A program made the translations under genes and the position numbers. A DNA stretch of 41,111 nt from positions 1 through 41,111 of IMG/VR virus record IMGVR_UViG_2724679059_000002; one strand, given 5' to 3'. Under the pieces are notes generated by a model that had not been told where the DNA came from, made no database searches, and saw only the letters and a list, made by a program, of their open reading frames with translations. This DNA is from a virus. Its lineage: Duplodnaviria > Heunggongvirae > Uroviricota > Caudoviricetes. How positions within the stretch are numbered: position 1 is the first letter of the stretch; the number at the start of each line of letters is the position of its first letter. Shown piece after piece: positions 1,288-28,230 of the stretch.

Positions 1288-1770
1288 CTATCTGGTCAGG
1301 GTGTCGTACTGTTTTTCACAGACTCTTCCGGCTTCGGCTGCCCGGTCAGCATACTCTGCCAGTTGTCTGTTTCTCTCGAGAGATTTGCTGAGCACGTCGG
1401 CAAGCAAAACTCCGGTGTCTGCGGCTGACGTCCCAGCGCCGACAATGGCGTTATACTGCCTGAGCTGCTCACGGATGGCAAAGAGTTGTTGCTGCAACCG
1501 GCCAGCGCGAGCGGCGGCATCAAGAGCATCATTGCGCGCCTGGTCGATCCTCTGCTGAGCTTCACGTTCATTGGTCACTTTCTCCTGTTCGTAGTACTGA
1601 CGAACTTTGTCTTCTTCGTCTTTGCGGTCTTCTTCCGCCTGCGCATACCCGGCATCGTACTGGCGGCTGCCGTGTATATTCCAAGCAACCACTCCGACGA
1701 TGAACAGAGCAGCAAGCATCAACACGATAAGCATCTGTTTCCAGTATGCTTTTACGAATACCCAGATCAT
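1288..1770 (-). CDS. Rz-like i-spanin
   Basis: N-terminal TM segment then charged coiled-coil periplasmic region; last gene of the lysis cassette after the endolysin; contains an embedded lipoprotein ORF. Confidence 0.65.
1296..1532 (-). CDS. Rz1-like o-spanin (lipoprotein) embedded in Rz in the +1 frame
   Basis: Track ORF 1296..1571 contains [13 protein letters not shown] lipobox and a Pro/Ser-rich body; start assigned to internal ATG at 1532. Confidence 0.55.
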   Translation of the reverse strand: MMLLMPPLALAGCSNNSLPSVSSSGSITPLSALGRQPQTPEFCLPTCSANLSRETDNWQSMLTGQPKPEESVKNSTTP

Positions 1771-2396
1771 ACAGCCAGCACCTTACTGGCAGTGACGTAC
1801 CGCGCGCGCCGGTCGTCGATGCCATTCCTGCCACCATTGATAATCAGAGTTACACGTGCAATATCGCCGGTATACTTCATGCAACCTTTGCTGGAGAAGA
1901 ACCACGCCGCGCTACGAGCAGCGTATTCGTCCTGCGCCAACAGTTCAGGATTCTCCAGCAGGTCAACTTTCAGACCGTTTCCACAGTCACGATAGTTATT
2001 CAAACCGGTAATCTGGATAAGCCCGCGCCCACGGTAATTCCAGCCATCACCATGGGCATTGTTCCCCATGCGTTTGCTGTACACCAGATTTGCGATCGCG
2101 CGCTGGCGCTCGAGTGGCAATGGTGGTTCACCAGCACGGCGACCAAGTGCATTAGCCTGCCCCTGAGTGAGACGCCCAGCCCGAACGAAGTTAGCCAATC
2201 CGGTTACGCTGTAGTTGAAATTTTCCTGCAACCGGGTGAAGCCTCCAGACTCATGCCCGACCTGAGCAATAAACATTGCCTGATCTTCTGGTTTGCTGAT
2301 ACCAAACTCTTTCATCGCAGAAGTTATATGCGAGAACCAGCGAGCGGCCAGCGCCTCGCTAATACCAGCAGCTCGCTGGAATTGTTTAATCTCCAT
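1767..2396 (-). CDS. Endolysin, glycoside hydrolase family 19 (chitinase-like lysozyme)
   Basis: Motif [15 protein letters not shown] typical of GH19; sits between holin-like genes and Rz. Confidence 0.8.
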
Positions 2397-2694
2397 ATTT
2401 AGACCTCGTTATTTTGAAAATCTGAACGACGTTACCGCGAGTTTTAAGAACCGCAGCAAGCATGACAGCGTTGATAATGACCTCAGATAAATCCACAGCC
2501 ATTGGCGTGCGTAACCAGATTGCATAAACGACACGAACTGGAATACTCGCAGCAGCAACAATCAGGAAATAAGCAATCCACCCACCCCATCTTCGATGTT
2601 GAGATCCGTTACGCTGGAAAGTGACAACGCGAATTGCTATGCCAGTACAAATAACCGCATTGGTGATAAGTAAAAAAAGCTCATGCGTTACCAT
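2386..2694 (-). CDS. Holin/antiholin-like small membrane protein
   Basis: 102 aa with 2-3 predicted TM helices, immediately upstream of the endolysin with overlapping start/stop. Confidence 0.5.
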
Positions 2695-3097
2695 CGTCTT
2701 TTCTCCCCGGCATTAATTCGCGTGGATTATCGGAACGGTGATAGAGCCAGATACCAATACGCACAGCGACAATTGCTGACACGAATGCGCCAGCAGAGAA
2801 AACAATCCCTTTCTCAAAAGAGTCCTGTGTGATGGTAGGGATCAGGCTGGCTATGCCAATAAGAATTGATGCTGCTGGTTTGTAAAAGAGAAGGCCGCAA
2901 ATAAAGCTGAGCACTGACAGAAGAACACGACGACGGATTGGATACTCGATAGCAGAGGTAACAAAAATCACAGCTCCGGCAAGTGAGCCCAAAGCAACTT
3001 CAGGTGGAGTCCCACCAATAACCGCAGCAAGAGAACCAACAGTAAGATACTGATTTACATGATCATTGGTTATTTGAAATGACATATCAACCACCAT
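2681..3097 (-). CDS. Holin-like multi-TM membrane protein
   Basis: 138 aa, several hydrophobic helices; first gene of the lysis cassette downstream of the tail fibre. Confidence 0.5.
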   Translation of the reverse strand: MVVDMSFQITNDHVNQYLTVGSLAAVIGGTPPEVALGSLAGAVIFVTSAIEYPIRRRVLLSVLSFICGLLFYKPAASILIGIASLIPTITQDSFEKGIVFSAGAFVSAIVAVRIGIWLYHRSDNPRELMPGRKDDGNA

Positions 3098-3236: not shown

Positions 3237-5231
3237 CTAATTAACTAATGAAGGGAATGTCGTATTAATTACAAGAACTGTTCCTGACGGATAGCTCTGA
3301 ATTGTAACTTTACCGTTTGAAAGTATATTAATGAGGGCAACCGATGAATCAGTACCTGATGGAATATAAGAAATATCATTCTTTGGTCTAAACCCTTCTG
3401 GCAATACCATAATAACTGTGCCAACAGATGTATTTCCACCTGTTAAAACAGCAGATAAAGTAACAACGCCCTCGGCTGATTTCTGATATGTTCCACTTCT
3501 TGCCTCACCTACAGACCAACCATTTTGCAATATGCCACTCATATCATACTGATTACCTCGCCATGTACTCCATGTATTCTCACTAATCCTTCCAATCCTC
3601 ATTAAGCAAACGCGAGCATTATCTGAAGAATAACCATAATTTTTTTGTACTACTATTCCGTCAACAAATCTATCAACCTGAATAACACCATCAAGAGGCC
3701 AAGAAGCATCATCAGGGTTTGTTCTCCACCATGAAGTCCCCATGTGAAAAGTATTTGGCGGATATGAGCTATTGATGAATTGTATGGAAGAACCATTGTT
3801 AGAAAAAAGGTTGCTACTCCCATTTATAACAGCACACGGTCCATAAATATATTCAAATAATAATTTATGTATCTGTGCGCTAAATGTTGAGTTTGGGTGT
3901 ATTCCCCTTCCATCGCCATAAGGGTCATCAAGCCAGTTACCAGCAGATCCTCTCGAATCCTGCCACATACCGTAAGTATCAAAAAACATACACTTATATT
4001 GTTTTGCTTTGGCTCTAAGTACGGCTGTCAGCTGCTCATACCATTTTTCATCACGTCCGTTTGGTGTGTCTGATGTTGAATTTGGAGACATGATAATAAT
4101 TGATTGCTGGGCAACTGATTTATTATTTCGTAACTTTGAAAGACCTCTATCTAAAGCATCTTTTACTTGATCCAATGTATAACCATAATATGGATCGTTA
4201 ATTCCCCATCGTAAAACAATCAAATCAGCAGCAGAAAAAACAGACCATTCATGATCAATATACCAATTACCCCATTCGTATAGAGTTTTACCTGAATGGC
4301 CTAATGATGTATTTTTTACATCAATAATTCCATACCTCTTTGCATAAAAATCAGCAATAGTTGCTGGTGGCCATAATTCAGAGTTAACACCAACAATCGT
4401 GGAGTCACCAGACCACAAAATATATGTTTTCTGTGATTTATCCACGCCATCTGCTTTTATCATCTTGCTAATAACATAATTAAGATATTGGTCACCAGTT
4501 ACAAAACGGGAACGAGGGTCAGAATACGTTGTTAGTTGAACACCTTCTGTATTAAATACACGCCCCCTGCGTTGCTCAATTTCAACACCATATTCATTTA
4601 ACAATGAAGATACAATTTCATCATCTTTCATCGTAATTACAGTTTGACCGGCTATAGATAAGTTTATGGCTTGCTGTATATTATTCCCTACAGCTCCAGT
4701 TCTTGTAATATCTGGACGCAAAGTACTATCACCACCTTCTATATACCCTTCAAGATAACTTAAAGTTACTGCATCCTGAGGGCTTTCTGGATCTTTAAGA
4801 TTTCTAATCCTGTTATTTAAAGCGTCGTACCAGTTTGCAATACTTGATGGTTTGCAAAGTGCAAGACGAAACAAGCTACGACATTGTTGAATCAGCATCG
4901 TTAGCTTATCAAACGCATCCTCATGCACCTCTGCAAAGAATTTACCCTGATTACGCAGATCTGTTTCCTGAGTAACCGGGAGCTCTCGTGATATAGAGAT
5001 CTGATAACCGTTGGCCAATGCCTTCGACAGTATTATATTACCGCCTCTATAGCCTCCCGCACCAGTGACTGCGTAATCAGTATCAAGAGCCAGCACAGTG
5101 ATATTCTCGTCAAGGTCAATCACCTGCACCACCAGATCAGATTTCTGGAAAATCCTAAAGGTATAAGGGAACGTAGTTGTAACACCGTTACCTGTATATT
5201 CGTTGTGGTCAACTTCGGTTGAGACCGTCAT
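3237..5231 (-). CDS. Tail fibre/tailspike: T7-like N-terminal adaptor domain fused to SGNH/GDSL esterase-like C-terminal domain
   Basis: N-terminus MTVSTEVDHNEYTGNGVTTTFPYTF...TDYAVT aligns by eye with T7 gp17 N-terminus; C-terminal region has WSGDST (GDS motif) and a distal DxxH-like motif (GRGIHP); C-terminal DNA looks AT-rich. Confidence 0.7.
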   Translation of the reverse strand: MTVSTEVDHNEYTGNGVTTTFPYTFRIFQKSDLVVQVIDLDENITVLALDTDYAVTGAGGYRGGNIILSKALANGYQISISRELPVTQETDLRNQGKFFAEVHEDAFDKLTMLIQQCRSLFRLALCKPSSIANWYDALNNRIRNLKDPESPQDAVTLSYLEGYIEGGDSTLRPDITRTGAVGNNIQQAINLSIAGQTVITMKDDEIVSSLLNEYGVEIEQRRGRVFNTEGVQLTTYSDPRSRFVTGDQYLNYVISKMIKADGVDKSQKTYILWSGDSTIVGVNSELWPPATIADFYAKRYGIIDVKNTSLGHSGKTLYEWGNWYIDHEWSVFSAADLIVLRWGINDPYYGYTLDQVKDALDRGLSKLRNNKSVAQQSIIIMSPNSTSDTPNGRDEKWYEQLTAVLRAKAKQYKCMFFDTYGMWQDSRGSAGNWLDDPYGDGRGIHPNSTFSAQIHKLLFEYIYGPCAVINGSSNLFSNNGSSIQFINSSYPPNTFHMGTSWWRTNPDDASWPLDGVIQVDRFVDGIVVQKNYGYSSDNARVCLMRIGRISENTWSTWRGNQYDMSGILQNGWSVGEARSGTYQKSAEGVVTLSAVLTGGNTSVGTVIMVLPEGFRPKNDISYIPSGTDSSVALINILSNGKVTIQSYPSGTVLVINTTFPSLVN

Positions 5232-5426: not shown

Positions 5427-5684
5427 ATGCAGCAGTATCACTATCCACTGGAAGAGGGATTTACCGAAAGGATTCACACGCCGGGAGGCGTCAGGTCACT
5501 GGTGGAGGGATCGCACTTGATGAAATTACTCCGGGATCTCGATAAGGATGGATTTAATGTCGATGGCCCACTTGCCGAACTGACTGCACTGATTAACTAC
5601 GTCACCAGCTCACAGATGTCTATGCAGGATCTGCAAACACATCTCGACTATTGTGCCGAACAATTACGAAAACAAACCAGATAA
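5427..5684 (+). CDS. Small antirepressor-like protein (paralog of the C-terminal domain of the Bro-N protein at 6000..6710)
   Basis: RBS ggagaag 5 nt before ATG; 85 aa; aligns by eye with residues ~170-235 of the downstream Bro-N protein (motifs PxGV, LxxLLxxLxxDG, DxxGxxAELT, DxQTH); preceded by a LexA box. Confidence 0.55.
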   Translation: MQQYHYPLEEGFTERIHTPGGVRSLVEGSHLMKLLRDLDKDGFNVDGPLAELTALINYVTSSQMSMQDLQTHLDYCAEQLRKQTR

Positions 5685-5730: not shown

Positions 5731-5999
5731 ATTTACATCGCACTCCTCTTGTGCCATAGTAATCGGGCACTGGCAAAATCCAGTGCCGGGATTGGCGTCC
5801 CGATTTACTAAGTGGCGCATACCACGCCAGACGTGGTTTTTTTATGCGTTAAGCACAGCTATATCCGAATTATGGTGGGCTGGGCAGGGGTCCGAAAGGA
5901 CGCCGGTACCACTTAGGCCGGTACGCCAACCTTGTCCAGTTCACCACCAGTAATTGGCGTTGCGGTGGTGATTAAAATCACTAAGTGGAGATAACCACC

Positions 6000-6710
6000 A
6001 TGGCTAATGCTCAAACTGCCATCTTCAAATTTGAATCTGTTAACCCTATCCGTTCCATCATTATCGATGGCCAACCATGGTTTGTAGCCCAAGACGTTTG
6101 TAGTGCGCTGCGTATCCAAAACGTCACCCAAGCACTTGAAAAACTGGATGATGATGAAAGGTCTATGTTCAACATAGGGCATGAACATCGTGCAATTTTT
6201 GACAGCCGAGTAAAAGAGATCAACATCATCTCCGAGTCAGGCCTCTACACACTGATCCTCCGCTGCCGCGACGCAGTGACACCAGGCACTATCCCCTACC
6301 GCTTTCGTAAATGGGTTACAGGTGAGGTTCTTCCTCTGATCCGCCGCACTGGAAGTTACATTAAAAACTCGCTCCCGCAGGAAGAACGCATAAAGATGGT
6401 TGCCGACCAGGTAGCCAACGCCACGGCGTCAGCAGTAATGCAGGCAATGAAGATAGAGAACAAAACCTACAGCGCCCCACTGAAGCCCGGATACCGCAGC
6501 CTGATTCATTCTCCGTCTGGTGTTCTCGGCCTGACGGAGAACTCACTGCTGATGAATCTGCTGAACCAGTTACAGGAAGACGGGCACGACGTATCTGGCG
6601 CGGCGGCGGAGCTGACCACCATGTTCTGCTACATCGTTGGTGTGAGCAAATGCCTGCGTGATATCCAGACTCACGCGGAGTATATCAACGACAAAGCAGG
6701 GTTCTTCTGA
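6000..6710 (+). CDS. Bro-N domain protein (phage antirepressor-like) with C-terminal domain
   Basis: N-terminus FKFESVNPIRSIIIDGQPWFVAQDVCSAL matches the Bro-N pattern; RBS ggag upstream; C-terminal domain paralogous to 5427..5684. Confidence 0.65.
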   Translation: MANAQTAIFKFESVNPIRSIIIDGQPWFVAQDVCSALRIQNVTQALEKLDDDERSMFNIGHEHRAIFDSRVKEINIISESGLYTLILRCRDAVTPGTIPYRFRKWVTGEVLPLIRRTGSYIKNSLPQEERIKMVADQVANATASAVMQAMKIENKTYSAPLKPGYRSLIHSPSGVLGLTENSLLMNLLNQLQEDGHDVSGAAAELTTMFCYIVGVSKCLRDIQTHAEYINDKAGFF

Positions 6711-6850: not shown

Positions 6851-7030
6851 ATGCGAAACGAAAAATTGCAGATGCGTAGAGCGCAAGCTGCCGCAAGACG
6901 TTCTTTCAATGGAAGCGTAGAGTACGTAAAAGTTACTATGACAAAAGATCACGCAAGTCGCGTATCCAGCGCTTTCTTTGATTCTCGTAACAATAAGGAA
7001 AATTATGAGTTTGTCTGCGTCGCAGAATGA
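6851..7030 (+). CDS. Small basic protein, candidate antitoxin-like partner (below the 60-aa track threshold)
   Basis: ATG at 6851 with SD tgagg 7 nt upstream; 59 codons; overlaps the start of the YafO-like gene by 26 nt in a different frame; Arg-rich N-terminus followed by a VKVTMTKDHASRVSSAF segment that could be a ribbon-helix-helix strand-helix. Confidence 0.3.
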   Translation: MRNEKLQMRRAQAAARRSFNGSVEYVKVTMTKDHASRVSSAFFDSRNNKENYEFVCVAE

Positions 7031-7550
7031 TAAAAATCAAATTGTCAGATATAAGGGTCGAGTATTGCATACGCAAAATTTCTCGGCCCTTTGTGCATCT
7101 GATCTTGAGCTGAAGAAAGTATCTGATGCATTTACCCAGTATTGGAAAACGGGATACCATCCATCTCTTGGTAAAGATGCCGCATTTGCTCGTCCGACAG
7201 AAATGCTTAAACTAAATGTCAGGCATACTCATGTCGATAACCAAGACTATATTCCAGAAGATAGTGATAAAAAACACACTGGTAAAAAATCATCCTGGGA
7301 TGCATGGAAAAATATAGCGTCTGTACAAGTAAAATGCATACCAACAAGTGATTGCTTTTTAGTTTATTCGGTAAATCACAATCGTGATGCGCTGGTTATG
7401 TTTTTTGTTGACGCAGATGCTCACAACATAACTGAGCAAGAAGAGTTTAAAGAGGCAGCAATCACTATCAGTTATCAATTCTTTGAGAAAACAAAAACAA
7501 AACCAATGCCTTTAGAAGAAGATCTTTTTTCTGATAAATGGAAGGAATAG
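7005..7550 (+). CDS. YafO-family toxin-like protein (ribosome-dependent mRNA interferase family)
   Basis: Aligns by eye with E. coli YafO: GKDAAFARPTEMLKLNVRHTHV vs GRDALYDDSFTWPLIKFERVAHIHL, and CFLVYSVN...ALVMFFVDADAHN vs AHLVYCQG...AWLLIAILKPEPHK; RBS aagga 5 nt before ATG; AT-rich. Confidence 0.55.
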   Translation: MSLSASQNDKNQIVRYKGRVLHTQNFSALCASDLELKKVSDAFTQYWKTGYHPSLGKDAAFARPTEMLKLNVRHTHVDNQDYIPEDSDKKHTGKKSSWDAWKNIASVQVKCIPTSDCFLVYSVNHNRDALVMFFVDADAHNITEQEEFKEAAITISYQFFEKTKTKPMPLEEDLFSDKWKE

Positions 7551-7570
7551 CCCGCACTGCGGGCTTTTTT
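7550..7570 (+). terminator. Intrinsic terminator after YafO-like gene
   Basis: gcccgc-act-gcgggc hairpin followed by tttttt. Confidence 0.55.
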
Positions 7571-7641
7571 GTGGACGAAACAAAAGTCAGTGCTACACTC
7601 ATTGACGCCACATTGAGGTGGCTTATAGATGGAAATTTCAA

Positions 7642-7803
7642 ATGAAAAAAGCATTTGCTGCACTGTTCGTTTTGTTGTCTCTGGTAGCTTCAACTCAGGC
7701 CTTTGCCGGTCGTTGTCAGCACGACAGCGATACTGCCGCTGACGGCTCCCGCTGCGGTGGGCGTTCTGCGGATTCCCGCCCGGGCGGCGGTGGCATTCGT
7801 TAA
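7642..7803 (+). CDS. Small secreted Cys-containing peptide
   Basis: 53 aa; signal peptide MKKAFAALFVLLSLVASTQAFA; Gly/Arg/Asp-rich mature part with 2 Cys; weak RBS. Confidence 0.35.
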   Translation: MKKAFAALFVLLSLVASTQAFAGRCQHDSDTAADGSRCGGRSADSRPGGGGIR

Positions 7804-7825
7804 AAACAAGGCCGCGAAAGCGGCC
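7801..7825 (-). terminator. Intrinsic terminator of the leftward structural operon
   Basis: ggccgc-gaaa-gcggcc hairpin followed on the - strand by a U-rich tract. Confidence 0.5.
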
Positions 7826-7834
7826 TGTGACATG

Positions 7835-8131
7835 TCACGTCCCTTTTCTGAATGATAGCCATTCGAAAAATGATGACATTCCACCGCAGACAATAACAAA
7901 GATGATCCCACCAAAGAAGAGAAGGCCAGCCTGCCACCACTCCCACCGCCATACATCCACAGCGCCAACCATACCAACAATCGCTCCAACAAATGGAATA
8001 TAGCTCACGATGAAAGCAATGGGGGCTGCAATTATCCAGTGCAATCCCCACCATGATTCAAGCCCAGCCATAATTGCTGCCAACTGAAAAAGACCAACGA
8101 CGATATAAACAATGAATCCTATCGCTTGCAT
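7835..8131 (-). CDS. Small integral membrane protein (Trp-rich, 3 predicted TM)
   Basis: 98 aa, strongly hydrophobic; last gene of the ejection-protein operon before the terminator. Confidence 0.5.
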   Translation of the reverse strand: MQAIGFIVYIVVGLFQLAAIMAGLESWWGLHWIIAAPIAFIVSYIPFVGAIVGMVGAVDVWRWEWWQAGLLFFGGIIFVIVCGGMSSFFEWLSFRKGT

Positions 8132-8326
8132 GTAGTCACCTATTTACCCAGTAAAAATCAGAGGCCTCCCCTCAATAAGGCTTGCAACAAGAACTATTCC
8201 CTGCACAACAAAGATGAACCAGCAAATAGCTTGAGTCTGAGGGTTAAGAAAATATTTGTAGCGGTCAATAAATAACAACCCACCAGAAATTATCACACTC
8301 AAAATAATTAAAAACAAAACACTTCC

Positions 8327-10801
8327 TTATTGCGGAGTGACATCCTGAGGTCGCCACCAGTATGTCTGATTAAACTCTTTCTTCGAACGTTGCTCCATTT
8401 TACGCAAATAGCCTGGTGAAAAATACTCCTGCATCTGGTTAAAGATCATATGATCGAGAGCCGCCTTTAAGTACCAGAGATTCGCACCTGGCATCAAACC
8501 TTTCCCCAGCTTCACCAGATCACCACCAGTCTGCTCATTCTTCCCCTCCACAGCATTTAACGGTATGCCCTGAGCAATCTTCACTACGTCATCAACCAGA
8601 CCAGCTACCGGGCCAAGCATCGACGCCAGCGCGCCGCTTCCGTACCTAGTGTGATCTGACAATAAAAAGTCACCGTAAAGGCCAAGACCACCACCTTTCA
8701 GTAGAGCACCAAGCCAGAATTTTGCGGCATCTTCTCCTGTCATATCTCGAGGATTACGACCAGACGCAAGGTCGTTAAGTTGCTGCGACAAAGCGCCAAG
8801 AATGGTCGTACTGGCAATAAACGTCGCAATATATGCCGCACGCCCACCAGCAGACGGCATCCCCATAGCGCGTGACCAGTGGCGCATAACCACCGAGATA
8901 GGGAACGATTTAAACAGGAAAACACTTCTCGTTAATTCACCTTTCCATGTTCCACGCTGAATACCAGAACCGGTTATCAGTTGCTCACGTGCTCCCGGTG
9001 TAATAACAGCCATATCAACTTCTTCAGTTACGGCACCGAGCAGTTTACGCATTGCCTCAAATTTCACGCGTTCAGGCTCACCAAGATGTTTAACTGCTGA
9101 ATCAGGGATACGCATAATGCTTTCCGGTGTCAGCATCGTATTATTACCGTTCCCCCAGTCCTCCTGTTGCGCCAGCTTCCATACGCTCCAGTCTGTGTCA
9201 GTAATCCCTTTGCTTTTCAGGATACGAAAATCAGAGTCATCGAGGCTACGAAGGTCTGGTGTCCGTGACACTACTTCCCCCATGCTTCCCATCATGGTTA
9301 CGCCATAGGCGCGCTTGTGCGCATCTGACCATGCTGTAAGCCCACTGGCACGCATTACAGCCGTTGCCGCCCAACGAGACACTGACGGCCCCATATTATC
9401 CATCGCCCAGCGGTTAACGCTGCCAAGTAGAGATTCCATCGCCAGACCAGCGCGGCGCGCCCGCGCAAGTTCTGTACGGTTCGTTGGGTCCATAGCTTCA
9501 AGCTGGTTGCGGAATAACTGGTTCATTGGAAGGTTGGTCACCTTCGCAGACAGATACATGGTTCCAAGATCAGAGAACGATGATAGCAACGCGGATCCGA
9601 GTCTGCTGGCAACCAGCCAGTTGCGGATATTGTCAGACCATCGCGCGATGTGCGGATTCGCTACAGGCTGTGTCTTTCCGGAAATAAAGTTGTACAGATT
9701 CTCTGTGTTGTTCGCCAGCCGCTCGACTTTACCGGTTTTACTCGGGTTAGCTGTTGCCGTTTCTGCCTTCACCTGATCAAGAAGAGAGCGGAAAACATGA
9801 TCGGGGTTTGGGCCATATGTTTCCACCAGTGCAATATCTTTACTGATACCTTCCAGGTGACCGACCATGATTTCCCATAGAGAGCGATCGCCATAAAGTT
9901 GCTGATATTGCAGATAGGAATCTGCATCTTTGAAATGTATCTGTCGTGATGCATTACCACGGTTAGCACGTGCGCCGGAAATTCGCATTCCGGTATCAGT
10001 AAGCTTATTCAGCCCACCAGTAGCGATCGTGTTATAAGCCTCTCCAAGAAATGCAGACAACTCGGCATCATTCATCAGTTGTCCATCGGCTCGGATATAA
10101 TATTTGCGATCCAGCTTACCTATAACATCGCTAACCCACTTATCCTTTGATACCGCCCCAACCTTTTCCATAGAATGATGTTGAGGGATCCCCCAGTTTT
10201 CGAGATAGCCAATGTCCCCACCAGCATCATTAAACCGGCGGCGCAGTAGATCTGTCACTTCTCTCCACGCCTTAGCACCTTTTCTTGCTTTAGCATTGCC
10301 AGTATTTTGCCCTCGCATTTCATATACCAGGTCACGTACGCCCGCCTCATCTTCAAACAGACCAAAAAAGCGAGGATCAACTGCTTCGAATGCCTCCTGC
10401 AATTGACTCAATGCATAATCACGAGTGGCTTTTGTTCTGGACTCAACAGAGAGGAAATTCGATTTACCGTCTGCATTAAAAGCAATAGTACGGTTAAGAG
10501 CGCCAAGTTTCCCATCAGCCCCTTGATAGCTATTGATAAATTTATCCAATCTCTGACGTGCGGCTATAGTGAGGGCCACACGACGTTTCTTTAATGCCGC
10601 TTCTCGCTGTAATTCTTCAGATGCCAATTGTGCTGCACGATATAGCCGCTCTGATTCGGAAAGTTGTCTCCACGACATCGGGTCATCACGAGCAATGGAG
10701 CGCATATTTCGATAAATGCGGTCTTCAATGTTCTGTATTTCTCGCGCCGTTAACGTGCGCTGCGCCGCCTGCTGGACCGCTTGTATACATTCCTGTCTCA
10801 T
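8327..10801 (-). CDS. Internal virion / ejection protein (large, gp16-like by position)
   Basis: 824 aa; third of three consecutive large proteins downstream of the nozzle gene, matching T7 internal-core gene order. Confidence 0.5.
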   Translation of the reverse strand: MRQECIQAVQQAAQRTLTAREIQNIEDRIYRNMRSIARDDPMSWRQLSESERLYRAAQLASEELQREAALKKRRVALTIAARQRLDKFINSYQGADGKLGALNRTIAFNADGKSNFLSVESRTKATRDYALSQLQEAFEAVDPRFFGLFEDEAGVRDLVYEMRGQNTGNAKARKGAKAWREVTDLLRRRFNDAGGDIGYLENWGIPQHHSMEKVGAVSKDKWVSDVIGKLDRKYYIRADGQLMNDAELSAFLGEAYNTIATGGLNKLTDTGMRISGARANRGNASRQIHFKDADSYLQYQQLYGDRSLWEIMVGHLEGISKDIALVETYGPNPDHVFRSLLDQVKAETATANPSKTGKVERLANNTENLYNFISGKTQPVANPHIARWSDNIRNWLVASRLGSALLSSFSDLGTMYLSAKVTNLPMNQLFRNQLEAMDPTNRTELARARRAGLAMESLLGSVNRWAMDNMGPSVSRWAATAVMRASGLTAWSDAHKRAYGVTMMGSMGEVVSRTPDLRSLDDSDFRILKSKGITDTDWSVWKLAQQEDWGNGNNTMLTPESIMRIPDSAVKHLGEPERVKFEAMRKLLGAVTEEVDMAVITPGAREQLITGSGIQRGTWKGELTRSVFLFKSFPISVVMRHWSRAMGMPSAGGRAAYIATFIASTTILGALSQQLNDLASGRNPRDMTGEDAAKFWLGALLKGGGLGLYGDFLLSDHTRYGSGALASMLGPVAGLVDDVVKIAQGIPLNAVEGKNEQTGGDLVKLGKGLMPGANLWYLKAALDHMIFNQMQEYFSPGYLRKMEQRSKKEFNQTYWWRPQDVTPQ

Positions 10802-10806
10802 TTAAT

Positions 10807-12609
10807 TTAACCTCTCAAGAAACACGCCACAGCGACATCAAACAGGCTGGAATCCTGTATTGCCTGCTCACTTTCCCTGTTCGCTTCATCCAGTACTTCA
10901 CGCGCACTGCGCGATTGTGGATTACCATCATCATCCAGCACGGTGATTATCATGTCCGGAGATTCAAGCAGCGAGTCTTCAGCTATACGCAGATCAATAT
11001 CTCCTGCCGGATCTGCCATCATTTTTTGTTCTGTCTGTTGCAATATCTTACCGGGCTCAAAAGGAGCTACTTCGTCTGGCGTCCTGACCTCTGCTGTTTT
11101 ATAGAATGAAACAGCCTGAGCATTAAGTTCACTTTCTGCCTGCTGTCGTCGTGCCAGTTCTGCTCGAGCTTCAAAAAACTGACCTCCAGGCTCGTGCGGC
11201 GCCAACGCGTTACGAGAAAATTCCAGGCGTTCTTGTGCCTGCCGGATTCGTTGGTCAATATCGCGAAGTCTGGCCTGTTTATCTGATCGAGCACGAGATA
11301 AAGCCTTACCGCTACCGGTTGGCTCTTCTGCAAGAATTTGTGCGCGCTGTTCAGTGAGATTTTCAATAATTCGTTGGCTATTAGCGATTTCAGACTGGTA
11401 AACCTGTCTATCGCCACGCGACAAAAGCTGCGCGGCCTGTTCTTCAAGCAACCGATTTTCTATAGCGCGCGCCGTTACTCCATCATCTACAGATGACAGA
11501 GCCTCATTAACTGCCTGAGATAGCAGACTCTTGCGCCCAGGAATTTCACTGAAAGATGCAGACTCAACAATGCTGGCAACGTCTACAGGTCTCCCCTGGC
11601 TAACATCAGACATGGCTTTTCGCAGAGCCTGAATGTGCGAATTACGCGAAAGCACGTTGATCGGAACGCCGGGAGCAATATCAATTTCAGCATGATGAGC
11701 GGCATTCGCCGCCAGTGCAGCATCAATATCAACTGGTGAAAAATTTGGTGCGCTTGTAGACTCGCCGCGAGAGTTAATAAATCTGCCGACACCACCAAAC
11801 GCCACCCCAAGAACAGCATCAATAGCAATTGCCTGTCGATCCAACACATCATACTGGTTAGCCATTTCGCTATAGCCACCATCACGAAGCGTTTTTGCAG
11901 TAAGCCCACGCTGTGCCATACCGAACGCAATATTTGTACCTGCGGCATAGGCAATATCTGGCGTTGCACGTACTGCTGTTGCTGCGGCGCGTCGCACTGA
12001 ACTCTCACCCGTCCGCGCAAGCTGAGCCGCCACACCTTCCGCCAGCGCACCACCAGCACGTAACCCGAGGCTCATAGGGATCAGTGTTCCGGCACCAGCA
12101 GTAATACCCTGCACTAATCCCGCTTCCTGCGCCGTCCTGAAATCAACACCCTGTGCTGTCAACCGTTCAAACTCAGAAAAACCCTGTAGCGAAGTTACCG
12201 CCGCTGCACCTCCGACAGGACCACCGAGCGTTGTACCAACAACAGCCTGCCCGCCCATATCGAACAACCCATAAAGAACCTGCCCGGCGGTTCCGGTTGT
12301 CGCGGCATCAGGCGTCAGCCGCTTAACCTGCTGCTCTGCTAGTTTTCTCTGCTCGGCAATGTATGAAACTGAAGTATCATTGAGCGAGGTGTTTTCGTTA
12401 ATAAACTGAGCAATCGGGGATACGATTTTATCCATCCCTGCCCATAGCAACTGATCTGGCTTTGCCACCAGCCCGGAGTACAAACCAGACAATGCCGCTC
12501 CTACAGCATTGTCGAAAAAACCAACATCGCTGTTAAAGCCCGCTGGATTTGATGCTGCTTCGTCAAGTTGCTGATTCTGATTTACTGGATTAAGGCCAAA
12601 GTAACTCAT
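10807..12609 (-). CDS. Internal virion / ejection protein
   Basis: 600 aa, Gly/Ala-rich central region; synteny within the structural operon. Confidence 0.5.
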   Translation of the reverse strand: MSYFGLNPVNQNQQLDEAASNPAGFNSDVGFFDNAVGAALSGLYSGLVAKPDQLLWAGMDKIVSPIAQFINENTSLNDTSVSYIAEQRKLAEQQVKRLTPDAATTGTAGQVLYGLFDMGGQAVVGTTLGGPVGGAAAVTSLQGFSEFERLTAQGVDFRTAQEAGLVQGITAGAGTLIPMSLGLRAGGALAEGVAAQLARTGESSVRRAAATAVRATPDIAYAAGTNIAFGMAQRGLTAKTLRDGGYSEMANQYDVLDRQAIAIDAVLGVAFGGVGRFINSRGESTSAPNFSPVDIDAALAANAAHHAEIDIAPGVPINVLSRNSHIQALRKAMSDVSQGRPVDVASIVESASFSEIPGRKSLLSQAVNEALSSVDDGVTARAIENRLLEEQAAQLLSRGDRQVYQSEIANSQRIIENLTEQRAQILAEEPTGSGKALSRARSDKQARLRDIDQRIRQAQERLEFSRNALAPHEPGGQFFEARAELARRQQAESELNAQAVSFYKTAEVRTPDEVAPFEPGKILQQTEQKMMADPAGDIDLRIAEDSLLESPDMIITVLDDDGNPQSRSAREVLDEANRESEQAIQDSSLFDVAVACFLRG

Positions 12610-15194
12610 TGCGGAATATCTCCGGAGAATCTCTGACGCTTCTGTGTCAGATCAAGAACAACAGGAGAACCATCATCTTTCAGCAGATAACCAGTACCAA
12701 GTTTCACCAGGTACTGACTATCGCCGTAACTTTGCAAACCATACTGACCAGGCGGTGTTTTTATCCCGGTGCCGACCACTTGTTCATTCCAAGCCTGATC
12801 AACCTGCTTATCGAATTGCTCTGCAGACATTCCCCACGGCAAAAGGACATTCCCCATTCCGTTATAGTCATGCACGCCACCTGTAGCTACGTTAACAGCC
12901 TGCTTCCAGATATCAGTGTCAATTTCGCCTGATATCACGCCTTTTTTCGCCATCACACCAGCGTAATAGTCCTTTGCGATCTCGTATGCCATTGATGCCC
13001 CCTGAGCATCACCAGCAAATGCATCCTTCACCATGTCAGAAAACTCAAGGCGAAGATCAGCATCTTTAGGCATCGGAATACCTTTCGCATCATCAGTACC
13101 TTTACGAGCCGCCGCGCCAGTAAGAATTGTCTGCGCAGCGGTTTCAGGAGACACGGAAACATCCGGATTAAACCAGTTTTTTTCTGCCAAAATACCACCT
13201 GGCTTATCCATCAGTATCCCGGCAACGGCAGCAGATGGAGCGTTGGCACTGATCTGCTGTAGTGCTGACATATACACCTGCCCACCACCAGTGCTCTGCC
13301 TGATGGTATCGAGATATGCTGCCTGTTGGGAAACGGGCGCATCACGAAAGAAAACACCGATCTGATTGGCCTCGTCTTTGGAAAAGAACGTCAGTGGAGT
13401 GCCATATGACTTAGCAAGGTCACTGACCTGAGCAGCACGCAAGGCAACGCTCTGTCCAAAGTTATCCTTATTGCTCATGTCGATAGGCTTTGCCTGTCCG
13501 GCGGCAAGAGAGAACTGTACAGGATCAGCCTGTCGCTGCTTTATCACCTGACTTGCAGCCGACACAACGTTGTCATAAAGAGCGGCTCGTGCCGCATAAC
13601 CCTCCCCTGTCTCACCAGTATCCGGGCGTAATTGCTCAACATATGCTGTAATGCTGCTTGTCGGCATGTTGCGGAAAGAGCCTATATACTGTCCGGCGAT
13701 TTGCGTATTTCTGAACTCGGTATATCGCAGGTTTCCTTCTCTGACTCCATAAGCTGCAATAAAATCAGCCTCACCAGGTGGGTTAGGAAATTCAACGCCA
13801 CGCATATACGCAGCTGTCGCATCGCGAACCTGGCTGTCAATCATCGTTTTATATTCAGCCTGCTGCTGCCGACGCAGTTGATCCGCCTGTCGCATAAAAC
13901 TTGCCTGCGCCTCAGGAGATGCCGCATCGAATGCTGCATTACCGGTATAGCGTTTGGTGTTGGTTGGAATTGTTGATAAACCAAGTGCTGCACTGACACC
14001 AGCAGTTAACTGCTGATCACTGTATGGCTGGCTACCGTTCTCATGATGGATAATGGCTGCACAAAGCGCCTTCAGGGTATCAGGATTAGATGCATCGAGA
14101 GGCTCATCAGCAGAAACGCCAAGTTGTTCGCACACTGCTTTGATATACGACATAGTGTCATTTTTATCAGCAGGCGGTGCCCAGCGATTAATTATCTCGC
14201 TGACGGTATCAATACCCTGCCTCTGATACGACATCAGGTTCCGCCCTAATGCACGAATCCCGTGTTCAGGTGTTTCGAATTTAGCAAATCGACCATCATC
14301 ACCGGTCTGGCCTACCCACGGATTAGTTTTGCTGTATTCGAGATTTCCTGGGTTATTGTTGCGTATGCCACGGGCACGCTCGGAAGAGTCACTATCTGCT
14401 ACAGCACGGCGAGCTCCAGCAGCAGTATCACTTAACTCGCCATTACTTTGGATGAATGCGGTCGCATTGTTTGCCGACCACTGGGACAATGCAGCATCAG
14501 CAACCTTCTCTTTAAACTCGATTTTCTTGGCCTGGATTTGCTCGTTGCTCCAGCCATGTGCAACACCGTACTCCTCAATTTGCTGGAAAGTTTGCTTGTT
14601 AGCCAATACGTATGCGGCGTTGTCGCCATACAATGCTGCGGCATTTTTACCATTGTTCAGCAGTGTCGCCTGAAACTGGCCTTCTTCGTAGGCATTAATT
14701 TGCCCTATCTCGTGTCGCCCGGCCTGCGTAGTGAACTGAATGCGCTGCTGCTGCGCCTGCTGCATGAAAGCATTACGAGCCTGTTCATCCGGCAGCGACA
14801 TAGCCAGTTGTTCGACCTGAGCATCAAACTGCTGCGTATACTCATGGCCTTTTCCAATAGCATTTTTCCCTTTCAGGTTAAGCAATCCTGTTTCAGGATT
14901 ATTCAGCAGATCGCTGCTTATCTGACTGAGGTTAAGAGATGCCTCCTGAGCCAGAGCGATATTGGCACGCTGTTTTGCCTGACCAAAAACATCAATTGCC
15001 TCTGTCCCTGCCCGAACAAAAGCATCACCAATACCTGGCTGAGAAAACGTCTGCAAGCCTGCTGACTGAACCCCACGGCTCTGAACCTGACGGCCGGATA
15101 CTGTTGGTACGACTGGCATTATAATCCTCCGGGTAATCTGGTTCCTGCTGCTGCCCCGATTGGCGCAGGAGTGCTTTGAGTAAACGGACTCCAC
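12606..15194 (-). CDS. Internal virion / ejection protein (gp15-like by position)
   Basis: 862 aa; synteny; start overlaps the upstream 181-aa gene. Confidence 0.5.
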   Translation of the reverse strand: MESVYSKHSCANRGSSRNQITRRIIMPVVPTVSGRQVQSRGVQSAGLQTFSQPGIGDAFVRAGTEAIDVFGQAKQRANIALAQEASLNLSQISSDLLNNPETGLLNLKGKNAIGKGHEYTQQFDAQVEQLAMSLPDEQARNAFMQQAQQQRIQFTTQAGRHEIGQINAYEEGQFQATLLNNGKNAAALYGDNAAYVLANKQTFQQIEEYGVAHGWSNEQIQAKKIEFKEKVADAALSQWSANNATAFIQSNGELSDTAAGARRAVADSDSSERARGIRNNNPGNLEYSKTNPWVGQTGDDGRFAKFETPEHGIRALGRNLMSYQRQGIDTVSEIINRWAPPADKNDTMSYIKAVCEQLGVSADEPLDASNPDTLKALCAAIIHHENGSQPYSDQQLTAGVSAALGLSTIPTNTKRYTGNAAFDAASPEAQASFMRQADQLRRQQQAEYKTMIDSQVRDATAAYMRGVEFPNPPGEADFIAAYGVREGNLRYTEFRNTQIAGQYIGSFRNMPTSSITAYVEQLRPDTGETGEGYAARAALYDNVVSAASQVIKQRQADPVQFSLAAGQAKPIDMSNKDNFGQSVALRAAQVSDLAKSYGTPLTFFSKDEANQIGVFFRDAPVSQQAAYLDTIRQSTGGGQVYMSALQQISANAPSAAVAGILMDKPGGILAEKNWFNPDVSVSPETAAQTILTGAAARKGTDDAKGIPMPKDADLRLEFSDMVKDAFAGDAQGASMAYEIAKDYYAGVMAKKGVISGEIDTDIWKQAVNVATGGVHDYNGMGNVLLPWGMSAEQFDKQVDQAWNEQVVGTGIKTPPGQYGLQSYGDSQYLVKLGTGYLLKDDGSPVVLDLTQKRQRFSGDIPQ

Positions 15195-22115: not shown

Positions 22116-22408
22116 TCCTGTTCACTGGCCTCTTTGGCCATCTTCAAATACTGTTCAGGGCAATGCGCCATAACGCGCTGAAACAGTTCCAGCGCCAGAT
22201 TGCGTTGCCCCTCATTAAATGCCATTGCCATAGCGTCCATCGGTGAGATAGCGGAAAACACACGGCCTTTCTCCAGCACCGACCAGACAACGCGACGCCC
22301 CTGTTCACTGCTCATGACAAAGCGAATGTCATCAATTTCACGCTGTGCCATGTCACGTTGCTTACGGGCGTTTTCTTCTTTCAGTTGATCATCTTCGTAA
22401 TCTGTCAT
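22112..22408 (-). CDS. Hypothetical small protein between portal and scaffold
   Basis: 98-aa ORF with coupled stop/start to neighbours. Confidence 0.4.
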   Translation of the reverse strand: MTDYEDDQLKEENARKQRDMAQREIDDIRFVMSSEQGRRVVWSVLEKGRVFSAISPMDAMAMAFNEGQRNLALELFQRVMAHCPEQYLKMAKEASEQE

Positions 22409-24731: not shown

Positions 24732-24808
24732 GTGGCATTAGCTCAGTTGGACAGAGCAACCGCCTTCTAAGCGGTTGGTCGCAGGTTCGAATCCTGCATG
24801 CCACGCCA
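24732..24808 (+). tRNA. tRNA-Arg (anticodon UCU), phage-encoded
   Basis: Full cloverleaf: acceptor GUGGCAU/AUGCCAC, D-arm gctc-agttggaca-gagc, anticodon stem accgc/gcggt with loop cuUCUaa, T-arm gcagg-ttcgaat-cctgc, discriminator G and encoded CCA; close to E. coli argU in the arms. Confidence 0.9.
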
Positions 24809-25005: not shown

Positions 25006-25425
25006 ATGAAGACAATTGATATGTTGGCTAAGTATCTAAATGAATGGCCATTAAAATATTCTCGTATCGTTCAGGCTGAAGACTGCATTTTTTATGGCGT
25101 TTTTGCTGGTAATGAAATGCATTACGAAGTAATTCAGAGTGAGGGACTGGCCGGGTTAACTCTTAGCGAAGACCATGGTACTAGCGTTACGTTCCATGAC
25201 TGGATAACAGCACAACGTTCTGAAATGGAAAAAGGCGATGTTTTTGATATTTCTCGCGCTGTTTACGCTAAAGCAAAAAGTGATAATGATTACATGAGCG
25301 AACACTTATACAACATGAAGTTACAATGCCTGCATGCGGCGCTTATTCAGAATGGGCACTTCGATAAAACAAGTGCCATCAATATTGCGGAAGCCATCAA
25401 CGCTGGATTTAATGCCATTAAGTAA
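25006..25425 (+). CDS. Moron gene of unknown function (AT-rich, opposite strand to the flanking late genes)
   Basis: 139-aa ORF with RBS aggtga; between terminase and portal on the opposite strand; flanked by terminators on both sides; no recognisable domain by eye. Confidence 0.6.
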   Translation: MKTIDMLAKYLNEWPLKYSRIVQAEDCIFYGVFAGNEMHYEVIQSEGLAGLTLSEDHGTSVTFHDWITAQRSEMEKGDVFDISRAVYAKAKSDNDYMSEHLYNMKLQCLHAALIQNGHFDKTSAINIAEAINAGFNAIK

Positions 25426-25445
25426 CACCGTGACATGTCACAAAC

Positions 25446-27871: not shown

Positions 27872-27888
27872 AACACCTTCGTGACATG

Positions 27889-28230
27889 TCACACTATTAA
27901 TTTCGTTTCATGCCAGCCTTTGGTCACCCAGCATTGCGAGTCACCATTACACGGGCATGAATTAACTGGAACTCTCTCGCCGCACTTACCGCAACGTTTT
28001 CTGCTGATCGATTTTATACGCCCGCGCACCCGGGCATCATCCTGGCGGATCAGCAGCGCGATGTACTCGGCCATTTCATAGGGATCTCGACCAGGGCGCC
28101 GGGCGGCGCAGTTACGCTCCAGCATTTCAATTTCCTGAGCATCAAGCACAATCTCCAGCTTACGCACACCAGATGCAGCTTGTCTGGCTCTCTGAGCGGC
28201 TTTGCGCTCTGCTGCTGATTTAGCCATCAA
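27889..28230 (-). CDS. Hypothetical protein with C-terminal Cys cluster (possible zinc-binding regulator)
   Basis: 113 aa; C-terminus CGKCGERVPVNSCPCNGDSQC; basic, helical N-terminus. Confidence 0.4.
   Translation of the reverse strand: MMAKSAAERKAAQRARQAASGVRKLEIVLDAQEIEMLERNCAARRPGRDPYEMAEYIALLIRQDDARVRGRIKSISRKRCGKCGERVPVNSCPCNGDSQCWVTKGWHETKLIV

Follow-up and report, generated by a model that had tools for sequence, protein, structure and literature searches.

Small predicted envelope proteins encoded behind the ejection genes of an epsilon15/phiV10-like Escherichia coli phage

Exclusion of superinfecting phages by P22 SieA depends on a small integral inner-membrane protein of 162–164 amino acids (aa) with three predicted transmembrane (TM) segments. 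In the gene order 16, sieA, mnt/arc/ant, 9, it is encoded after the last ejection gene (16) and before the tailspike gene. sieA is present in 22 of 66 P22-like phages as several barely related sequence types, and mutations that escape SieA exclusion map to the ejection proteins gp16 and gp20 (PMC10883804). By annotation, the 83-aa membrane protein Imm of phage T4 causes superinfecting DNA to be left in the periplasm, T4 Sp is a small periplasmic protein, and epsilon15 gp22 is a 66-aa two-TM inhibitor of the host alpha O-antigen polymerase that causes serotype conversion. Here we describe three small open reading frames (ORFs), ORF1, ORF2 and ORF3, in a 41,111-nucleotide stretch of viral DNA (IMG/VR record IMGVR_UViG_2724679059_000002, positions 1 to 41,111), referred to as the window. 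By DNA similarity and annotation, the window is the genome of a temperate podophage of E. coli in the genus Uetakevirus (epsilon15/phiV10-like). Here ‘slot’ refers to the place behind the last ejection-protein gene, the gene for a homolog of epsilon15 gp17 (gp17 below).

The slot was surveyed in more than 150 related loci, including 80 IMG/VR loci anchored on ORF2, 80 loci anchored on ORF1 and loci anchored on ORF3. ORF2 follows gp17 in 80/80 of the ORF2-anchored viral loci. The gap between gp17 and ORF2 contains ORF3 in about 65 of these 80, and otherwise holds unrelated signal-peptide proteins (as in three loci) or two-TM proteins (as in two). Behind ORF3 stand a lipoprotein in one locus, a 93-aa two-TM protein plus ORF2 in another, and a homolog of epsilon15 gp18 in a third (L015). 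Two more loci have further signal-peptide proteins in the slot, and a 137-aa lipoprotein stands behind gp17 in 23 of the 80 ORF1-anchored loci. A Yersinia prophage has an opposite-strand signal-peptide protein between the ejection gene and its ORF2 homolog. A lipobox, a signal peptide or TM segments mark nearly all slot occupants; Ant of the TL-2011b-type phages and one 204-aa Klebsiella phage protein were the exceptions seen. Among 80 IMG/VR loci, the presence of ORF3 does not depend on that of ORF1, and either may be missing. The slot appears to be a recombination-prone hot spot for interchangeable envelope-targeted proteins.

We propose that ORF1–3 have an action at the cell envelope, in lysogens or during infection, that stops DNA delivery by related podophages. 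Judged by gene position, this is the best-supported guess, with a probability of roughly 35%. ORF2 and ORF3 would reside in the membrane, presumably the inner one, where the incoming gp15–17 conduit must insert, and ORF1 would reside in the periplasm, which the conduit crosses. The three would be functional analogs of P22 SieA and T4 Imm/Sp, with no homology to them. Exclusion at the envelope is favored because P22 sieA is the best analogy. The support is circumstantial: the slot contains almost only envelope-targeted proteins and corresponds to the place of P22 sieA, as ORF1–3 also lie between the last ejection-protein gene and the tailspike. ORF2 (at least 78% identity, and at least 88% except at one locus) is found with 48 tailspike receptor-domain clusters across 63 loci, at least one of these tailspikes being a mis-called gp17. 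The target of ORF2 would therefore not be serotype-specific, and its partner would be something conserved, for example the ejection apparatus or a core inner-membrane component.

Several observations weigh against exclusion. ORF2 and ORF3 are co-directional with the ejection operon and promoterless, whereas P22 sieA is convergent with its own promoter; in the promoter scan, no convincing sigma-70 promoter was found upstream of ORF2 or ORF3, the matches being weak (8 of 12). As late-operon genes, they may not be made in lysogens, where exclusion matters. The ORF2 family profile has no homology to P22 SieA (hhalign probability 0.3%, E = 0.23), and the SieA motif FxRYPxEAxxFNK is absent from ORF1–3 on inspection of the sequences and family alignments. 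Nor is there homology to T4 Imm (hhalign probability 0.3% with the ORF2 family profile, 1.6% with that of ORF3), or of ORF2 and ORF3 to epsilon15 gp22, ORF1 not having been compared with SieA, Imm or gp22. PADLOC-DB defense profiles gave no match to ORF1–3 at E ≤ 1. ORF2 is conserved very strongly (dN/dS, the ratio of nonsynonymous to synonymous substitution rates, of 0.02), unlike an arms-race protein, and remote relatives of it are found in non-phage settings (for example beside umuDC, on a plasmid-like contig, or in DUF805, RDD and MORN fusions). In the near-identical prophage phiv142-3, orf11 (ORF1) and orf12 (ORF2) are not among the significant serum-up genes by quantitative reverse-transcription PCR, the supplementary table covering significantly serum-up-regulated genes only (PMC7724020).

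Table 1 Features of the ORF1–3 locus and of its surroundings, in positions of the window; SD, Shine-Dalgarno sequence
Feature	Position	Strand	Remarks
Complete lysis cassette	1288-3097		holin-holin-endolysin-spanin (Phage_holin_8, Phage_holin_3_7, Glyco_hydro_19 endolysin, DUF2514 spanin)
GDSL-esterase tailspike	3237-5231		
Rho-independent terminator	7549-7565	+	scan match, AGCCCGCACTGCGGGCT then TTTTTTG; closes YafO-like unit, insulates ORF1
Candidate sigma-70-like promoter of ORF1	7572-7599	+	TGGACG (7572-7577), 16-nt spacer, TACACT (7594-7599); read from sequence
Inverted repeat GCCAC-N6-GTGGC	7607-7622	+	in ORF1 leader, between -10-like hexamer and start codon
ORF1, 53-aa pre-peptide	7642-7803	+	signal peptide residues 1-22 (7642-7707), then 31-aa mature part
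GC-rich hairpin terminator	7809-7826	-	shared with convergent ORF1; scan match, AGGCCGCTTTCGCGGCCT then TTGTTTTT; ends late operon
Perfect 12-bp palindrome	7827-7838		GTGACATGTCAC; overlaps ORF2 stop codon; fixed 3′ boundary of variable slot
ORF2, 98-aa Trp-rich predicted integral membrane protein	7835-8131	-	SD AGGTGA at 8141-8136
ORF3, 57-aa two-TM hairpin protein	8144-8317	-	conserved DRYKYF loop; TTG start 8317-8315
gp17, 824-aa internal virion (pilot/ejection) protein	8327-10801	-	phrog_684, full-length match
Ejection/internal-virion gene (gp15-17 homolog set)	10807-12609	-	phrog_1145
Ejection/internal-virion gene (gp15-17 homolog set)	12606-15194	-	phrog_992 and transglycosylase match

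The position behind gp17 could also be read as a sign that ORF2 and ORF3 belong to the virion or ejection machinery, or serve as assembly chaperones, for example as membrane partners of gp17. The tight spacing fits this, since a Cronobacter ORF2 homolog begins 1 nt past the gp17 stop codon, as does the constant place of ORF2 in all 80 viral loci of its set. However, both genes are absent from phiV10 and epsilon15. phiV10 has ~97% DNA identity to the 3′ end of gp17 (the query contained no other part of this gene) and lacks ORF1–3; its slot holds an unrelated 46-aa two-TM protein (p21), and the epsilon15 slot holds the 64-aa two-TM gp18. ORF3 is also missing or replaced in about 14 of the 80 loci, remote ORF2 homologs stand beside integrases and on plasmid-like contigs, and proteins that mostly span the membrane are inserted during synthesis, so are unlikely to be packaged. 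A structural role is therefore very improbable. Because phiV10 does without all three genes despite the nearly identical gp17 3′ end, ORF1–3 are accessory and dispensable for the virion. Their region is of a kind normal for a temperate phage.

All three ORFs were confirmed at the places given by a preliminary description of the window. They are genuine coding genes under purifying selection and not chance ORFs, because Nei-Gojobori dN/dS against diverged relatives (pairs including the window vs Klebsiella phage BUCT711) is 0.17–0.25 for ORF3, 0.02–0.05 for ORF2 and ~0.08 for ORF1, and because the start codon and SD of ORF3 are kept across alleles. BUCT711 has the same three genes in an identical layout. 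Signal-peptide and TM prediction, suggested by that description as a check, gave a Sec-type signal for ORF1, three spans for ORF2 and two TM segments for ORF3 (by hydropathy, with AlphaFold2 for ORF2). Small secreted and membrane proteins are thus encoded, as described, between the ejection genes (phrog_992, phrog_1145 and phrog_684) and accessory genes of Bro-N and YafO-like types. They had been taken for a single cluster, but are actually two separate units that vary independently among the 80 IMG/VR loci.

The first unit consists of ORF3 and ORF2, which follow gp17 at gaps of 9 and 12 nt with an SD each and would be the end of the late/ejection operon. The GC-rich hairpin that ends this operon is a strong terminator and potentially bidirectional, as it has an A-tract on the other side. 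Directly next to it lies the 12-bp palindrome. Exact copies of the palindrome occur three times in the window (7827-7838, 25430-25441 and 27881-27892), compared with 0.08 expected, and a one-mismatch copy occurs at 22345-22356. A terminator made up of a GC hairpin and a T-run directly follows two of the exact copies, those behind ORF2 and behind a 139-aa ORF (25006-25425, plus strand). The third is just upstream of a terminase-small-like gene, where the late operon starts. Among 108 loci, the palindrome is found once in 88, including phiV10, epsilon15 and TL-2011b, and has no match in 20. Wherever the layout was checked, it immediately follows the last of the small genes behind gp17, whatever that gene is. 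Homology to TL-2011b spans the end of the YafO-like gene, ORF1 and the terminator and ends at ~7840, so that a mosaic joint coincides with the palindrome. The palindrome may serve as an operator or as an RNA element, or may mark a recombination boundary.

ORF3 has a strong ribosome-binding site; its SD AAGGAAG (8328-8322) overlaps the gp17 stop codon. In 72 of 73 delimitable related loci its length is 57–60 aa (57 aa in 68). Most E. coli alleles begin with GTG, and the window and Klebsiella have TTG; all alleles listed, except one divergent match, start with GTG or TTG, and every one of them has an SD (AAGGAAG, AAGGGGG or AAGGAGG) 3–5 nt upstream. The preliminary description had suggested a possible unannotated hydrophobic ORF of ~50 aa with a GTG start on the minus strand. 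The gene is real, but it starts at the TTG and encodes 57 aa. The GTG is codon 8, seven codons downstream, and the shorter form would trim the first TM segment to ~9 residues. The gene is indeed omitted from the records of phiv142-3, ExPEC XM and BUCT711, but other NCBI genomes annotate it as a 57-aa hypothetical protein. ORF3 relatives form 13 clusters, and ORF3 has no significant PHROG (best E = 0.064). It comes directly after the 824-aa gp17 in 5/5 loci with their layout read, the window included.

ORF2 contains 8 Trp among 98 residues (8%) and has three hydrophobic spans by hydropathy. Its AlphaFold2 model (pLDDT, the predicted local distance difference test, of 90) has four helices, at residues 2–28, 32–42, 46–59 and 65–97, the middle span being broken at Y44-I45-P46 by a kink at YIP. 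ORF2 matches phrog_3075 over its full length (E = 3.8e-54, residues 1–98 of 98). Its close relatives form 52 clusters, all annotated as hypothetical, and all of those with an organism name are from Enterobacterales.

The preliminary description had offered lysis timing as a possible role. ORF2 and ORF3, made late, would be factors of holin, antiholin or pinholin-like type. Both are small, multi-TM and apparently co-transcribed with late genes. Among 28 ORF2 relatives, sub-threshold Pfam matches include LrgA (E = 0.09, 1/28) and Phage_holin_5_2 (E = 0.08, 3/28), and some holins are among the insignificant fold-search matches of ORF2. However, the best holin-type match of ORF2, LrgA, scores 13 bits against a cutoff of 28, and no holin family recurs at significance among the 28 family members. 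Holins typically end in a charged C-terminal tail, which ORF2 lacks. A complete lysis cassette is present elsewhere in the window, beyond the tailspike gene on the far side from ORF1–3, and neither ORF2 nor ORF3 is placed within it. In addition, phiV10 and epsilon15, which have neither ORF2 nor ORF3, still lyse cells, and lysis timing leaves unexplained ORF1 and those secreted proteins and lipoproteins found instead of ORF3 in other phages. We therefore regard this role as improbable. The lysis-timing and structural explanations are both weaker than exclusion or the host-directed function discussed below.

The ORF2 family extends far beyond phages. When the ORF2 profile was searched against 1.8 billion representative proteins, 748 clusters (at 50% identity) were matched at E ≤ 0.001 and 324 at E ≤ 1e-10. 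Common to the family are Q16, A19, P46, GxxxGxxGA and WxW..QA..LFF. In one protein, four stretches are matched. Pfam search of 32 long fusion proteins with the ORF2 domain gave only DUF805 (3), RDD (1) and MORN (1), a result of little help on function. One setting of remote relatives is the edge of a prophage, beside an integrase; others are a small plasmid-like contig, apparently chromosomal sites and, in Buttiauxella, the neighborhood of umuDC. No relative of ORF2 was found in Pfam or NCBIfam, or by sequence search of solved structures, and a Foldseek search of the confident model against PDB and BFVD had no match better than E = 1.7. Its top matches were to K+-channel pore domains, at chance level, and were not used. 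Because non-phage relatives are widespread while Pfam, NCBIfam, PDB and BFVD have none, ORF2 is a phage's version of a membrane domain that is broadly distributed and undescribed, and so points to a large membrane-protein family described in no curated library.

In three loci from Microvirga/alphaproteobacterial genomes, a second small membrane protein, conserved and with the motif LAKxPYGYYxxLRIV, is encoded just downstream of the ORF2 homolog. This suggests a two-gene membrane module outside phages.

The second unit is that of ORF1. Its signal has the n-region MKK, a 13-residue hydrophobic core and the cleavage motif AFA|G (Sec-type, by hydropathy). The mature 31-aa peptide, GRCQHDSDTAADGSRCGGRSADSRPGGGGIR, is predicted to be periplasmic, is rich in Gly, Ser, Asp and Arg, and has a Cys25-Cys38 loop. 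ORF1 matches phrog_14503 over its full length (E = 2.3e-40, residues 1–53 of 53). In an alignment of 25 relatives, the signal peptide is variable and the mature part near-invariant, with C25, D30, G35-S36-R37-C38, G40-R41-S42 and S45-R46-P47-G48-G49 invariant. Such drift of the signal beside a fixed mature part would be expected of a secreted peptide that is processed. The AlphaFold2 model is confident only for the signal helix. Two other assignments were considered. ORF1 is not a lipoprotein, as most alleles lack a lipobox and there is an extra residue between the AxA|G site and Cys. An arbitrium-like signaling peptide was a remote thought only, with no receptor gene and no support.

Morons of temperate phages are promoter-gene-terminator units in the Hendrix/Juhala sense. 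At the sequence level, ORF1 has such a layout, being flanked by two terminators (7549-7565 and 7809-7826), preceded by a promoter-like sequence and patchy in presence; it is found in roughly half of the 80 ORF2-anchored loci. The upstream terminator hairpin precedes ORF1 in most related loci, behind differing upstream genes. The promoter-like sequence scored below the threshold of the consensus scanner. In nine diverged ORF1 contexts, the TA...T of the -10 is invariant and the -35 is kept as TGGAyG/ATGACG. The leader repeat GCCAC-N6-GTGGC occurs once in the window, compared with 0.08 expected, and across diverged contexts its stem arms are conserved and its loop is variable. It could be a 5′-untranslated-region RNA hairpin or a repressor operator.

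ORF1 proteins with 100% identity occur both in Uetakeviruses and in a second lineage, the EC.W1-9-type and TL-2011b-type phages, whose last internal virion protein is T7 gp16-like (phrog_342). In both lineages ORF1 is convergent on the end of the ejection operon. Homologs with 56% identity are found in Alcaligenes phage Piluca and a record labeled Acinetobacter phage, in both cases opposite a gp17-like pilot gene. A more specific form of exclusion can be conceived, in which the periplasmic 31-aa Cys-Cys-loop peptide would bind and disable the trans-periplasmic conduit of an incoming podophage, and ORF2 and ORF3 would form a second layer at the inner membrane. This fits because homologs from Alcaligenes to E. 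coli face the last internal-virion gene of two unrelated ejection families, and because the mature sequence is almost invariant while the signal peptide drifts. Such a mechanism would nonetheless be a long shot.

The main competitor of exclusion is lysogenic conversion directed at the host. In this case ORF1–3 would change how the lysogen's envelope works, such as its stress, serum or antimicrobial tolerance, or would act in transport or as a channel, and would have no bearing on other phages. ORF1 has the moron layout, and in PHROGs its family is classed as ‘moron, auxiliary metabolic gene and host takeover’. The spread of the ORF2 domain among non-phage bacteria and its fusion to other membrane domains suggest a generic membrane function, and ORF2 is under very strong purifying selection. 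The neighboring small gene orf10 of phiv142-3 is reported to raise serum resistance (PMC7724020). On the other hand, a phage-unrelated function does not predict that ORF1 faces the ejection operons of two unrelated families, and the position of ORF2 and ORF3 is fixed directly behind the ejection genes in the enterobacterial phage loci examined. The lack of a recognized promoter for lysogen expression at ORF2 and ORF3, and of orf11 and orf12 among the serum-induced genes, counts against host fitness as it does against exclusion. We consider a host-directed role rather unlikely, yet a serious candidate.

The setting of the locus is that of its genus. The nearest records by DNA similarity are phages HEMP4, phiv142-3 and Phi05_2388, and the syntenic maps of phiv142-3, phiV10 and epsilon15 are concordant with this region of the window. 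The gp17 gene is the last large gene of the ejection operon, and annotation makes its product a homolog of epsilon15 gp17, phiV10 p20 and the Piluca ‘pilot protein’. On the minus strand, gp17 is followed by ORF3 and ORF2, then by the convergent ORF1, YafO-like and Bro-N genes, and then by the tailspike gene. Read on the plus strand from the tailspike to gp17, the genes are a gp19-like gene, a Bro-N antirepressor-type gene, the YafO-like gene and ORF1.

Some of these neighbors have features of their own. The C-terminal part of gp17 (residues 703–783) weakly matches phrog_16310 (E = 0.001), to which the T7 gp16-like internal virion protein opposite ORF1 in the second phage lineage belongs; gp17 and the T7 gp16-like ejection proteins, otherwise unrelated, may share a C-terminal module. 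The gp19-like 84-aa protein (5430-5684, plus strand; phrog_450) is homologous to the C-terminal domain of the neighboring Bro-N protein (5985-6710, plus strand), both matching phrog_450 and phrog_15539, and looks like a free-standing copy of that domain. A 59-aa ORF (phrog_6685; 6851-7030, plus strand) overlaps the start of the YafO-toxin-like gene (6978-7550, plus strand), whose Pfam YafO_toxin match (E = 1e-5) is barely above the cutoff. As a pair these two genes are also annotated in phage TL-2011b, and they may be a toxin-antitoxin module in the accessory region beside ORF1. Near the terminase region, a tRNA-Arg(TCT) gene (24732-24808, plus strand) adjoins the above-mentioned 139-aa ORF, which is inserted there and is convergent with the large terminase gene.

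Of 5426 complete E. coli genomes, 146 contain the whole trio, among them those of avian pathogenic (APEC) and extraintestinal pathogenic (ExPEC) strains, and relatives of the trio are present in Klebsiella and Salmonella. The proteins are already catalogued, as hypothetical proteins (phrog_14503 and phrog_3075) or as ‘transmembrane anchored protein’ by PGAP. Scans of the three proteins with Pfam, NCBIfam and PADLOC gave no significant family. The phiv142-3 study treats orf6 and orf10 only (PMC7724020). In the literature on epsilon15 gp18, phiV10 membrane proteins, ‘transmembrane anchored protein’ and Uetakevirus superinfection, a functional study was not found.

If exclusion is true, the slot would be a ready catalog of candidates, with at least a dozen unrelated small envelope proteins, and these could be used as tools on the gp15–17 conduit that crosses the periplasm and inner membrane. 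The trio could then help to explain strain-level resistance to podophages, with an angle on phage therapy and typing; such a role is possible given its carriage in E. coli, APEC and ExPEC included, and its Klebsiella and Salmonella relatives. If ORF1–3 are ordinary fitness morons, little changes.

In comparison with known systems, ORF1 is like typical morons in its flanking terminators, promoter-like sequence, patchy presence and identical copies across lineages, but its position, always facing an ejection operon, is more constrained. Within the genus, epsilon15 gp18 and phiV10 p21 occupy the same place as ORF3, behind gp17 and before the same palindrome and terminator, and are likewise two-TM hairpins of 46–64 aa, with ORF3 included in this range. 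Their homology to ORF3 is undetectable, and both are uncharacterized too. We considered ORF3 as an allele of them. Besides the missing homology, L015 carries ORF3 and a gp18 homolog together, so they are separate modules and not alleles.

Epsilon15 gp22, from the same genus, is a small two-TM protein like ORF3, and its action at the inner membrane alters phage susceptibility, but its locus differs. Serotype-conversion inhibitors of the gp22 type were rejected for ORF2 and ORF3, as there is no linkage to tailspike or O-antigen (48 clusters) and no homology to gp22. In T4, the pairing of small membrane and periplasmic proteins, Imm and Sp, would be mirrored by ORF2/ORF3 and ORF1. T4 is another phage type, however, and its imm and sp genes are early and differ in gene position. 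P22 SieA is much larger than ORF2 (98 aa) and ORF3 (57 aa), and it is a TM protein whereas ORF1 is a secreted peptide. Still, sieA and ORF1 are both convergent to the ejection gene, sieA with its own promoter and ORF1 with a promoter-like sequence, and SieA, as ORF1–3, is an accessory found in only some relatives.

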